A stretch of DNA of 44,592 nt from Escherichia phage PSK8: the sequence record PP541515.1; one strand, 5' to 3'. The position numbers and the translations under genes are program-made. The notes beneath the pieces were generated by a model, which worked only from the letters and a program-made list of their open reading frames with translations, was not told where the DNA came from and searched no databases. Below, one piece after another: positions 24,975 through 27,093 of the stretch (position 1 is the first letter of the stretch; the number at the start of each line of letters is the position of its first letter).

Positions 24975-25070
24975 ATGAATTACGATGCAATGTATGAAGC
25001 CTACTTCGACTCCTTAGAAGAAGGAGAAGAAGCATTATCCTATGCTGAATTCGTGGAGGCTTTATCATGA
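24975..25070 (+). CDS. Small acidic early ORF (31 aa)
   Basis: GAGGAA RBS; ATGA overlap with next ORF. Confidence 0.35.
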   Translation: MNYDAMYEAYFDSLEEGEEALSYAEFVEALS

Positions 25071-25249
25071 TTCTGAATAATCGTGAACTATCCGTTCTCT
25101 TCACCTTGTTATGCTACATGATTCGTAACAACGAATTACTTACAGATGATGAGTTGGCCTTGTATCACCGCTTTCTTAACGAAGGTTGGACCGATACAGT
25201 TAACCAGAAACGTGACTTGATGAAGGAGTTAAGCAATGTATCAGCATGA
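25067..25249 (+). CDS. Hypothetical early protein (60 aa)
   Basis: GGAGG RBS; translationally coupled chain of early ORFs. Confidence 0.5.
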   Translation: MILNNRELSVLFTLLCYMIRNNELLTDDELALYHRFLNEGWTDTVNQKRDLMKELSNVSA

Positions 25250-25460
25250 GGTTTTCTTCGAATCAGCTAAAGAAGCTATTCGCTTGCATGATGATATGAA
25301 GTTAGCAGACATGGATGTTGGCTTGACCAGCTTCCTGCTGGATTACAACATGGAATATCACCGCGTTACCTTGGTATCGGAGTATGACCATCAAACGATT
25401 ACCGAGTACTTAGGTAGCGAAGATTATGATTACGACCAAGTAATCACAACAAATCTCTAA
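25236..25460 (+). CDS. Hypothetical early protein (74 aa, acidic)
   Basis: AAGGAG RBS. Confidence 0.55.
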   Translation: MYQHEVFFESAKEAIRLHDDMKLADMDVGLTSFLLDYNMEYHRVTLVSEYDHQTITEYLGSEDYDYDQVITTNL

Positions 25461-25468
25461 ATTAACTA

Positions 25469-25497
25469 TTGACAGCCACGGCATACAAGGTTACATT
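25469..25497 (+). promoter_or_regulatory. Host sigma70-type early promoter (TTGACA-17-TACATT), second copy
   Basis: Same -35, spacer length and -10 as the 24568 promoter. Confidence 0.5.
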
Positions 25498-25638
25498 AAG
25501 CATCAAGACGGAGACGTCTCAAAACATCCACCGCTCTTTAACAATCTGGATAGTAGCTTCTTAGTCGGATAGGTTAAATCTAGGGCATTCTTTTGAGTGC
25601 CCTATAATGTAACCTAACTAACTAATGAGGATTAAATC

Positions 25639-26013
25639 ATGGAACGCAATGCTAACGCTTACTACAATCTTCTGGCTGCAACGGTTGAAGCATTCAACGA
25701 GCGCATTCAGTACGATGGTATCCGTGAAGGCGATGATTATTCTGATGCACTTCATGAGGTTGTAGACGGTAAGGTGCCGCATTACTATCATGAAATTTTC
25801 ACAGTAATGGCAGCCGACGGAATTGATATTGAATTTGATGATGCTGGCTTGATTCCTGATACGAAGGATGTAACCAAGATTCTCCAAGCTCGCATTTATG
25901 AGGCACTTTATAATGATGTGCCAAATTCTGATGATGTAGTTTGGTATGAAGACGAAGAAGATGAGTGCGTTAACTCTTCTTACTTCATTATCAACACAAA
26001 TGAGGCTATTTAA
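25639..26013 (+). CDS. ocr: Ocr-like DNA-mimic antirestriction protein (T7 gp0.3 homolog)
   Basis: VPHYYHEIFTVMAADGIDIEFDDAGLIPDTKDVTKILQARIYEAL closely matches recalled T7 Ocr; acidic tail; first sizeable early gene. Confidence 0.85.
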   Translation: MERNANAYYNLLAATVEAFNERIQYDGIREGDDYSDALHEVVDGKVPHYYHEIFTVMAADGIDIEFDDAGLIPDTKDVTKILQARIYEALYNDVPNSDDVVWYEDEEDECVNSSYFIINTNEAI

Positions 26014-26016
26014 TTA

Positions 26017-26127
26017 TGGAAAAGCAATACAATTTTATCTTTTCAGACGGTGTAACCTTGAAATGTTCCTTGCGATTTGCACAGATTCGCGAGGAAGTGC
26101 TAGGCACTACATATAAACTATTTAGCT
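26017..26127 (+). CDS. Small early ORF (36 aa)
   Basis: ATG 4 nt after ocr stop; no strong RBS. Confidence 0.3.
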
Positions 26128-26145
26128 GACACTATAAGAGAAGAC
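26121..26145 (+). promoter_or_regulatory. Variant phage-promoter-like sequence (TTTAGCTGACACTATAAGAGAAGAC)
   Basis: Shares TGACACTATA core with other promoters but differs around +1. Confidence 0.3.
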
Positions 26146-26208
26146 TTAACAGGGCGTTACTCGTTAGCGCCCGATTAAGTTTATCTCAATAACCAAATAG
26201 GTGACTAT

Positions 26209-27093
26209 ATGACTACTGAAAACACCCTCGTGTCTGTCCGTGAAGCTGCAACCGCTGAAATCAAGCAACACTTAGACAGTATTGGCACTTCTTACATCAA
26301 AGTTGGTGCTTGTCTGAATGAGTTACGTGGTGATTTTGAGGGACAGAAAGAGTTTTTAGCCTATGTAGAAGCTGAGTTTGCCATTAAAAAGGCACAATGT
26401 TACAAGCTGATGAGTGTAGCCCGTGTCTTTGAAGGAGACGACCGCTTTAAAGGTGTGGCGATGCGTGTAATGCTGGCACTTGTTCCTTTCGCTGATGAGA
26501 ATATCATCATGGAGAGGGCCGCAGAACTCGCCGCAGAAGGCAAGCTGGACACTAACGCCGTAAACGCCCTGATTGAGCCTAAGAAAGAGCCAAAGGTTGA
26601 AACGGTGCAACCCAAGGCTGAGCCTGTAAAACCGCAGGAGAACGCAACTGAGGCCGCAGAATCACAGGAAACGCAAGCGCCGCAGGCAGTGCCGCCGGTA
26701 AGTGAGCCGGAGGCTGACGTATCCGCACCTTGGGAGGCGGAAAGCAAGCCGGAAGCGCCAAAGGCCGCGCCACCGGACAACACGGCTAACACTGATAACG
26801 CCGCTATGGCTGGCCTGTTAGCACAGATTAAGGCACTGACTGAGCAATTGCAGGCAGCTAACGACCGCATCGCTTCACTGACTAGCGCACGTGAGAGTAA
26901 GAAGGCCGCCGCTCCTATGCTTCCACAGTTTAAATCCTCTTGCTTCTACGCTCGCCTAGGCTTGAGCGCTGAGGAAGCAACTAAGAAAACGGCTGTTAAC
27001 AAGGCTAAACGTGAATTAGTTAAGTTAGGGTACGGTGAGGGCCATGAAGCATGGGCCTTAATTGCGGAAGCAGTAGAAGAATTGACTAAGTAA
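26209..27093 (+). CDS. Early protein of unknown function with Pro/Glu/Ala/Lys-rich central linker
   Basis: 294 aa ORF between ocr and RNAP; low-complexity middle segment; no recognised motif. Confidence 0.6.
   Translation: MTTENTLVSVREAATAEIKQHLDSIGTSYIKVGACLNELRGDFEGQKEFLAYVEAEFAIKKAQCYKLMSVARVFEGDDRFKGVAMRVMLALVPFADENIIMERAAELAAEGKLDTNAVNALIEPKKEPKVETVQPKAEPVKPQENATEAAESQETQAPQAVPPVSEPEADVSAPWEAESKPEAPKAAPPDNTANTDNAAMAGLLAQIKALTEQLQAANDRIASLTSARESKKAAAPMLPQFKSSCFYARLGLSAEEATKKTAVNKAKRELVKLGYGEGHEAWALIAEAVEELTK

Follow-up and report, generated by a model that had tools for sequence, protein, structure and literature searches.

An Early Protein with Predicted DUF3102-Type and HPD-Less J-Like Domains in the Ocr-Containing Early Operon of Escherichia Phage PSK8

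Positions 24975-27093 of the sequence of Escherichia phage PSK8 (PP541515.1; 44,592 nucleotides, referred to below, at its full length, as the window) carry a block of six plus-strand genes, namely three small open reading frames (ORFs; orfA, orfB and orfC), the gene of an Ocr homolog, a 37-amino-acid (aa) ORF designated gp4, and a gene encoding a 294-aa protein. Based on a computational analysis, we are nearly certain that this block is the class I (early) operon of a Vectrevirus. The explanation that we prefer for the block, and in which we place a little more belief than doubt, is that such an operon encodes a true Ocr together with a 294-aa protein acting as a host-takeover adaptor; the specific reading of the latter as a chaperone adaptor is tentative and is held with more doubt than belief. 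What the analysis adds to the existing records is the recognition of this protein, K1E gp6 or SP6 gp7, as a DUF3102-coiled coil-J-like protein, and of gp4 as an unusually constrained gene.

Results

Identity of the Locus

A megablast search with positions 24000-27200 returned 109 phage records, headed by K1E, mutPK1A2, K1-5, CrRp3 and many genomes labeled Vectrevirus, the best of which share gene order with this region at a nucleotide identity of 86-89%. All genes of the 44.6-kb window lie in a single orientation, and the GC skew is positive along its whole length. On the grounds of the identity, the gene order and the one-strand arrangement of genes, we regard the window as the genome, in circularly permuted form, of a podovirus resembling K1E, K1-5 and SP6 (Autographiviridae, Molineuxvirinae, Vectrevirus). 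In both K1E and mutPK1A2, position 1 corresponds to about position 23878 of the window, and the block begins approximately 1.1 kb inside the left genome end. The early region closes with the gene of a single-subunit phage RNA polymerase (875 aa; 27157..29784, plus strand), an ORF annotated as such in the K1E, K1-5 and SP6 loci. The order in SP6 is identical (orfA, orfB, an orfC-like gene, Ocr, gp4, a membrane ORF, gp7 and RNA polymerase). Three K1E genes are missing from the window, namely 2.5 and 2.8, in the slot between orfC and ocr, and 5, in the slot between gene 4 and the 294-aa gene; these are variable slots of the operon.

A preliminary description of the block, made from the letters of the sequence alone, had placed five ORFs (24975..25070, 25067..25249, 25236..25460, 25639..26013 and 26209..27093) exactly where we found them and had overlooked the 37-aa gene at 26016..26129. 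Its presentation of the genes flanking Ocr as new did not hold, as K1E, K1-5, SP6 and some 100 further sequenced phages already carry all genes of the block other than Ocr, listed there as 'hypothetical'. We see in the module the usual Vectrevirus/Zindervirus early operon, which holds no gene that is new as a sequence; it is ordinary for the genus, its Ocr was called rightly and is already known, and one family encoded in it deserves a bench test. The description had recognized no function in the flanking genes, and we likewise found none assigned in Pfam, NCBIfam, PHROGs, PADLOC or PDB; in scans of all six block proteins against Pfam, NCBIfam and PADLOC, Ocr was the sole match. The homology searches and structure prediction that it had proposed as a check gave no match of known function for the small ORFs, and for the 294-aa protein they yielded putative DUF3102-type and J-like domains.

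The C-Terminal Domain of the 294-aa Protein

An AlphaFold2 (AF2) model of the 294-aa early protein (26209..27093, plus strand; phrog_4571; K1E gp6, K1-5 gp6 and SP6 gp7) was built from a 44-sequence alignment. It consists of a confidently predicted six-helix N-domain (residues 10-122), a disordered segment (126-191), a long helix (193-231) and a confidently predicted C-domain (236-293), and the identity to the SP6 protein is 75% in the N-domain, 35% in the linker, 69% in the helix and 95% in the C-domain. The structured N-domain and the Pro/Glu/Ala/Lys-rich linker had been noticed in the preliminary description; what had been taken there for a coiled-coil-like C-terminal region is not just a coiled coil, as its last 60 residues appear to form a separate globular J-like domain.

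This region (aa 232-294; 26902..27090, plus strand) comprises an invariant P-M-L-P-Q-F motif followed by the HPD-less J-like domain; across the family, the peptide ahead of the domain is invariant as P-(M/L)-L-P-Q-F. The best PDB match of the family profile was the J domain of DNAJC27 (2ys8), aligned with a 6-residue gap exactly at HPD. A comparison by hhalign of 21 C-domains with six canonical J domains gave a probability of 92.8% (E = 4e-7) and aligned helix I (Y..LGL), helix II (KA.RELVK) and helix III (EA…EA…L) with those of the J domains. The C-domain also displays the elements of a J fold, i.e., helices I-III with a basic helix II. In the window protein, the HPD position is occupied by GYGEGH, and HPD is absent from the C-terminal 75 residues of 274 of the 275 family members checked. 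The exception, P0304, keeps IHHPDK, passes the Pfam DnaJ model (43.7 bits, 3e-11) and has the architecture of the family (N-domain, acidic linker, helix and an MLPHF motif); a second relative with IHHPDK, P0325, was retrieved later. Four further relatives (P0215, P0224, P0243 and P0231) score 16.8-26.0 bits on Pfam DnaJ, below the cut-off of 27.8, and P0231, with 26.0 bits, carries HYNPD. The fold, the PDB match, the profile comparison and the make-up of the family are four independent lines that point the same way. Since the family holds both intermediates and forms with an intact HPD, the C-domain appears to descend from a functional J domain from which HPD has since been lost; we refer to it as J-like and not as a member of the J-domain family.

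The two HPD-bearing relatives, P0304 (L017, 1145-1858) and P0325 (L019, 1491-2198), are metagenomic and shorter, with 235-237 aa. Their genes come after runs of tiny same-strand ORFs, on contigs whose length of 1-2.4 kb does not suffice to reveal an RNA polymerase gene. With regard to their genomic context, a scan of viral contigs gave only a weak match in the linker, and a final homology search added one member to the family.

The domain resembles the J domains of DnaJ, CbpA and DjlA (PF00226) in its helix I-II-III fold, the conserved LG, the basic KA(F/Y)R..(V/I)K helix II and the EA..L helix III. It differs from them in having GYGEGH in place of HPD, a shortened loop, no helix IV, and a C-terminal placement after the invariant LPQF. 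The mitochondrial Pam16/Tim16 proteins are also HPD-less, but have no sequence relationship to it beyond the fold and differ in context and partner domains. Among phages, RB43 reportedly encodes a J-domain protein, Rki, which serves here as a comparison. In a J domain without HPD, stimulation of the Hsp70 (DnaK) ATPase is expected to be absent. The C-domain is the best-conserved part of the 294-aa protein in the comparison with SP6 and in most of the more distant phages; its identity across hosts is 95/76/66/57/44/53%, with values of 44-76% in phages of Klebsiella, Erwinia, Vibrio, Pseudomonas and Marinomonas.

The N-Domain, the Linker and the Long Helix

The six-helix N-domain (aa 8-124; 26230..26580, plus strand) is probably of the DUF3102 type and shows a predicted fold likeness to the helix-turn-helix (HTH) domains of ParB, Spo0J and KorB and to the alpha-domain of Raf1. 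Its relation to DUF3102 (PF11300) emerged from several comparisons. Among 44 relatives, 25 match the DUF3102 model below its cut-off (best 7e-5), and the family profile retrieves, at E values of 1e-11 to 1e-18, proteins that pass the cut-off (54.8, 41.6 and 29 bits). Some relatives are labeled DUF3102 in UniRef, and a fold search of BFVD returned DUF3102 proteins and one ParB-like protein. The N-domain is thus linked by profile to the DUF3102 proteins of phages, prophages and plasmids, in which the combination of DUF3102 with a coiled coil is common; unlike in these, a J-like C-domain is present, and it is specific to the 294-aa sub-family. The likeness to the HTH of ParB and KorB is at the level of the fold. 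In contrast to ParB, Spo0J, Noc and KorB, the 294-aa protein has no ParB/Srx CTPase domain and begins directly with the helical domain.

The disordered acidic linker (aa 125-192; 26581..26784, plus strand) has predicted local distance difference test (pLDDT) values of 31-40, and its 68 residues include 13 Pro, 12 Glu, 12 Ala and 7 Lys. It is followed by a single long helix (aa 193-231; 26785..26901, plus strand) with pLDDT values above 90, which is probably a coiled-coil dimerization element, as judged from the model.

Distribution and Synteny of the 294-aa Family

Full-length homologs of the 294-aa protein were found by tblastn in 213 phage records representing more than ten host genera. The identity is about 91% within Vectrevirus, 65-67% in SP6, about 48-52% in phages of Pectobacterium, Proteus and Klebsiella, about 45% in Era103-like phages of Erwinia, and 31-39% in phages of Vibrio, Pseudomonas, Aeromonas, Marinomonas and Edwardsiella. 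When 1.84 billion representatives were searched with a profile, 112 clusters (at 50% identity) showed the whole architecture at E ≤ 1e-30. Many of these clusters have an extra N-terminal extension of 60-200 residues, and no Pfam or PHROG domain was found in the extensions of distant members. The homologs span Molineuxvirinae, Colwellvirinae and uncultured T7-like contigs.

In every locus that we opened (phiA318, Nerthus, CPP1m, phiEa100 and S16c), the gene lies directly, or nearly so, upstream of the RNA polymerase gene. The homolog on the metagenomic T7-like contig L014 is also upstream of RNA polymerase, and on contig L013 the gene 3' of the homolog is a truncated, unannotated ORF of 540 aa. 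The genes on the 5' side vary and include those of Ocr, a SAM-dependent methyltransferase, a GNAT protein, a kinase and an HNH endonuclease. As judged from this conservation and synteny, the protein appears to be a core early gene product of the SP6-like subfamilies and not that of a variable accessory gene. The preliminary description of the entire block as an anti-defense module does not fit a protein that behaves in this manner.

A literature search found no function assigned to K1E gp6 or SP6 gp7, and the papers on phiA318 and UAB_Phi78 list the protein as unknown. In public records (e.g., KY295893 D_30, MN384978, OQ291025 and OR594181), the product names of homologs are inconsistent, including VLTF-4 late transcription factor, endolysin, prolipoprotein diacylglyceryl transferase, periplasmatic protein and DNA polymerase. 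None of these labels was supported by any of our searches; the low-complexity linker is their probable source.

The position of the 294-aa gene directly before the RNA polymerase gene, its early expression and the two-module architecture of its product are reminiscent of T7 gp0.7. The gp0.7 kinase had been reported as not evident in the block, and a tblastn search of the whole window with it gave a best E value of only 1.5, i.e., no homology; the AF2 model of the 294-aa protein is all-helical and has no kinase fold. Vibrio phage phiA318 (1021-2884) encodes both a 294-aa homolog and, between this and RNA polymerase, an annotated gp0.7-like kinase, indicating that the two proteins are not simple replacements of each other.

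The Ocr Homolog

Ocr itself is broadly conserved. The 124-aa product of 25639..26013 (plus strand) has an isoelectric point (pI) of 4.05 and a net charge of -22, with 29 Asp and Glu residues as compared to 7 Lys and Arg residues. It matches Pfam PF08684 (E = 1.2e-31; 109.5 bits, with a cut-off of 25), phrog_2568, 'ocr-like anti-restriction' (1.8e-50), and, over residues 7-101, PDB entries 1s7z/2y7c (E ~ 8e-28). The identity to T7 gp0.3 is 50% in the structured core, and that to SP6 Gp5 is approximately 60%. The agreement of Pfam, PDB and T7 identity bears out the earlier call of an Ocr homolog at this position, and by homology we consider the product a bona fide Ocr, a member of a well-known family. 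It shares with T7 Ocr and SP6 Gp5 the ocr domain, the extreme acidity and a place among the first genes of the early operon. It differs from T7 Ocr in its divergent C-terminal tail (…EDEEDECVNSSYFIINTNEAI), which stands in place of the acidic tail of T7, and it exceeds K1E gp3 by 16 aa in length. In experiments, SP6 Gp5 abolishes the BREX defense of Salmonella (PMC11341690). Since the window protein is a true homolog, it should act as in T7 and SP6, and would be expected to be an acidic dimeric DNA mimic sequestering type I restriction-modification enzymes and the PglX protein of BREX.

The Small Genes of the Operon

For each ORF of the block, the ratio of nonsynonymous to synonymous substitution rates (dN/dS) among seven related loci, including K1E, K1-5, mutPK1A2, CrRp3, fTuEco01 and SP6, was 0.02-0.23 at dS values of 0.2-1, indicating purifying selection, and a Shine-Dalgarno-like GAGG, GGAG or AGGTG precedes every start codon. 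These two features argue against chance ORFs and for real genes. As had been described, the first three small ORFs are coupled, with an ATGA overlap between orfA and orfB (25067-25070) and a 14-nt overlap between orfB and orfC (25236-25249).

The product of orfA (24975..25070, plus strand; GAGGA Shine-Dalgarno site) is a 31-aa protein of phrog_2061 with a net charge of -9, a dN/dS of 0.09-0.37 and an identity of 74-87% to its counterparts in K1E, fTuEco01, CrRp3 and SP6. It is unannotated in the RefSeq record of K1E, where 'gene 1' is orfB. The 60-aa product of orfB (25067..25249, plus strand; phrog_9275; K1E gene 1, SP6 gp3) has 34 invariant residues and a dN/dS of 0.03-0.19, and is encoded in 101 phage records (Escherichia, Salmonella, Klebsiella and Citrobacter). 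The 74-aa product of orfC (25236..25460, plus strand; phrog_6403; K1E gene 2 and the 69-aa gp4 of SP6) has a net charge of -12 and is fast-evolving, being 97% identical to its counterpart in mutPK1A2, about 75% to those in K1E and K1-5, and 20-26% to those in CrRp3 and SP6. A tblastn search with orfC returned 58 phages of Escherichia only, and its PHROG also spans the divergent versions of SP6 and CrRp3. Single-sequence AF2 prediction gave a compact beta-alpha-alpha-beta-beta-alpha-beta fold for orfC with a pLDDT of 84, in which just two of the five models were confident and in agreement. Acidic, fast-evolving and genus-restricted, orfC has the profile of an accessory or anti-defense gene, and these features make it a better candidate for the latter than the 294-aa gene.

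Three bases past the ocr stop codon lies the gene of the 37-aa gp4-like protein (26016..26129, plus strand; phrog_11746; K1E and K1-5 gene 4). Its product is 100% identical in K1-5 and CrRp3, 79% in SP6 and 73% in Klebsiella phage S16c, the 294-aa homolog of which is 49% identical. With a dN/dS of 0.00-0.03 at a dS of about 0.6-0.8, gp4 is the most constrained gene of the block, and it occurs in 134 phage records (phages of Escherichia, Klebsiella, Salmonella and Proteus). The ranges of the small genes are nested, narrowing from gp4 through orfB to orfC. Because it adjoins the 294-aa gene wherever no extra gene intervenes and is exceptionally conserved, gp4 may be a partner of the 294-aa protein; its profile is that of a partner or regulator under tight constraint. 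T7 gp0.4, an inhibitor of FtsZ, occupies the same position after Ocr; despite this, we rejected a homology between the two, as BLASTP gave no alignment and they belong to separate PHROGs.

None of orfA, orfB, orfC and gp4 matched Pfam, NCBIfam, PADLOC or PDB, either singly or as profiles. The sequence and profile comparisons with PDB returned noise, and matches to dPPR10 contained no passing stretch. A literature search found no characterization of these small genes.

Putative Transcription and Processing Signals

Transcription of the operon presumably starts at sigma-70-type promoters close to the left end of the genome and is carried out by the host RNA polymerase. A consensus scan gave two sigma-70-like sites in series (24524..24596, plus strand; GTGACA-18-TATCTT and TTGACA-17-TACATT), which lie approximately 650 nt inside the left end and are candidate early promoters, and an internal site (25469..25497, plus strand; TTGACA-17-TACATT) with the same hexamers as the site at 24568.

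Upstream of orfA, the leader motif CACCGCTCTTTAACAAT (24900..24925, plus strand) is the first copy of a 26-nt direct repeat, the other copy being at 25529-25554; its core CGCTCTTTAACAAT is invariant also in the leader of T7 gene 0.3. The Ocr leader (25529..25616, plus strand) consists of the T7-like motif CGCTCTTTAACAATCTGG and, following it, a strong hairpin 5' of ocr (25570-25616; dG -25.3 kcal/mol, z = -5.7 versus shuffles). The motif is shared with T7 as 18 identical nt upstream of gene 0.3 (T7 about 826-845), in a region of T7 that holds the R0.3 RNase III site. By analogy with T7, the Ocr leader and its hairpin may represent an RNase III or mRNA-stabilizing site, and the shared motif suggests that mRNA processing signals are conserved between the early regions of T7 and the window, which are otherwise unalignable. 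A second strong hairpin (26138..26187, plus strand; dG -27.2 kcal/mol, z = -6.3 versus shuffles) separates gp4 from the 294-aa gene, at the slot that holds gene 5 in K1E and K1-5; within it, 26152-26172 also scored as terminator-like. An Rfam scan of 23500-27300 gave zero family matches.

A short-repeat array was also observed at the left end. CTTAGT occurs 26 times on the plus strand of the genome, and 17 of these copies lie within 23650-24950, a stretch of 1.3 kb comprising the left end and the early-promoter region; they are in a single orientation, with zero reverse-complement copies in that stretch. The array is kept in K1E, K1-5, mutPK1A2 and fTuEco01 (15-16 copies) and in SP6 (13 copies), and Pseudomonas phage Nerthus has an array of its own, CTCGGT in nine copies, at the corresponding site. 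The CTTAGT array is similar to the short-repeat arrays beside the terminal repeat of T7, and could consist of sites for packaging, for concatemers or for protein binding. Immediately ahead of the genome end, an ORF at 23740-23835 encodes a hydrophobic 31-aa peptide, MLVGWISFILGVCVGFCIMPIAIACALKAEV, after a strong AAGGAGG Shine-Dalgarno site; together with an ORF at 23502-23669, encoding a basic 55-aa protein of phrog_2423, it forms the last genes of the late region.

Discussion

The mechanism that we propose assigns the 294-aa protein the role of a host-takeover adaptor acting as a coiled-coil dimer. Its degenerate J domain would dock on the host Hsp70 system, i.e., on DnaK or on the J domain of DnaJ or CbpA, the latter being proposed by analogy with the Pam16-Pam18 pair. 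The LPQF peptide would perhaps aid this docking, with a hydrophobic core and lysine flanks as in DnaK-binding peptides. Since a domain lacking HPD cannot fire the ATPase, the J-like domain would be unable to trigger ATP hydrolysis, and the chaperone would be sequestered or redirected, while the N-domain would tether this chaperone-directed activity to DNA or to another macromolecule. The content of a DUF3102-type and an HPD-less J-like domain fits a general role in host takeover, by way of the chaperone system and possibly of DNA, better than an inhibitor of a single defense.

Several points weigh against this interpretation. The 294-aa protein of the window itself has no match to DUF3102 in Pfam and none to DnaJ at E ≤ 1. 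In Foldseek comparisons, the alpha-domain of the Rubisco-assembly factor Raf1 ranked at least as high as ParB, and the pI of the N-domain, 4.9, is unusually acidic for a domain that binds DNA. A sequence-level homology of the N-domain to ParB HTH domains was rejected, as hhalign gave a probability of 0.2% against the HTH segments of Spo0J and Noc. With a likeness confined to the fold, an acidic domain and this negative comparison, we put forward DNA binding by the N-domain as a hypothesis only. The sigma-70-like sites are not more numerous in the region than in shuffled sequences, and the promoters were called by position. DnaK or DnaJ is no more than a presumed target, since the loss of HPD bars a classical co-chaperone role and the J fold can serve other protein contacts as well. 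Experimental support in the block is limited to Ocr, to which it extends by homology. We also know of no requirement of SP6/T7-type RNA polymerases, or of these phages, for DnaK.

We weighed these points in relation to other roles of the same protein. It could be mainly a DNA-binding regulator, either an Aca-like autorepressor of the strong early promoters or a factor for the shut-off of host transcription, analogous in function to the DNA-binding C-terminal domain of T7 gp0.7, with the J-like domain as a structural or oligomerization module. The predicted ParB/KorB/Noc-like HTH fold of the N-domain and three conserved basic residues, K61, K66 and R86, located in its putative recognition helices are consistent with such a role, as is the location of a conserved HTH-type gene 3' of variable small early genes including an anti-defense gene, an arrangement like that of acr-aca operons. 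A shut-off factor of the gp0.7/gp2 type is, moreover, neither annotated in K1E nor found in the window, and the shut-off domain of T7 gp0.7 binds nucleic acid (PMC12345140). However, the acidity of the N-domain and its lack of a sequence-level relation to ParB HTH domains count here too; known Aca proteins, to which the 294-aa protein compares by position and, at the level of the fold, by its putative HTH, are far smaller; and no operator-like palindrome was identified at the promoters, where operators were not sought systematically. It is, furthermore, the J-like and not the putative DNA-binding domain that is most conserved, and the existence of HPD-intact relatives, together with this conservation, argues for a functional C-domain as opposed to a simple scaffold. 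We consider the regulator rather unlikely. A factor serving the downstream phage RNA polymerase, for example in its assembly or in its recruitment and loading on the entering genome, would account for the adjacency or near-adjacency of the two genes in every inspected locus, down to about 33% identity, and for the combination of an N-domain resembling an assembly chaperone, Raf1, with a co-chaperone-like C-domain. SP6 RNA polymerase is, however, active when made alone in E. coli, genes intervene in phiA318 (a kinase), Nerthus and CPP1m, and the adjacency may merely reflect shared early timing, so that this role appears very improbable.

A broader alternative is that the flanking genes, the 294-aa gene included, encode dedicated inhibitors of defense systems and form an anti-defense island with Ocr. 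Early expression beside Ocr, the small acidic and fast-evolving proteins (orfA, net charge -9; orfC, net charge -12 and 20-97% identical) and the gene slots that vary between relatives (K1E genes 2.5, 2.8 and 5 are missing here) would be expected of such an island, and the T7 neighbor gp0.7 is described as a broad anti-defense factor (PMC13645617; PMC12345140). Apart from Ocr, however, no block protein matched PADLOC or known anti-defense families, and the 294-aa protein and gp4 are deeply conserved across host genera under strong constraint, whereas host-specific counter-defense genes usually turn over faster, although Ocr, too, is widely conserved. For the block as a whole we regard the island as unlikely; it is the narrowly distributed acidic small proteins, orfC above all, that would more likely be host-specific accessory or anti-defense factors.

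Returning to the host-takeover adaptor, K1E gp6 and SP6 gp7 might represent an unrecognized class of such proteins, in which a dimeric DUF3102 protein uses an HPD-less J domain and the LPQF peptide to capture or disable DnaK/DnaJ, might tether them to DNA in the early phase of infection of many Gammaproteobacteria by SP6-like phages, and has gp4 as a possible partner; taken with all its parts, this proposal is doubtful. A highly conserved host target would explain the strong conservation of the C-domain across hosts. The 294-aa protein is the only early gene product besides RNA polymerase that is conserved across the SP6-like subfamilies, and SP6-like phages (K1-5, K1E and SP6, and many phages of Klebsiella, Proteus, Erwinia and Vibrio), which lack the T7 takeover factors gp0.7 and gp2, find use in therapy and biotechnology. 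The decayed J domain turns what has been a 'hypothetical protein' for 20 years into a cheaply testable hypothesis of an interaction with DnaK/DnaJ.

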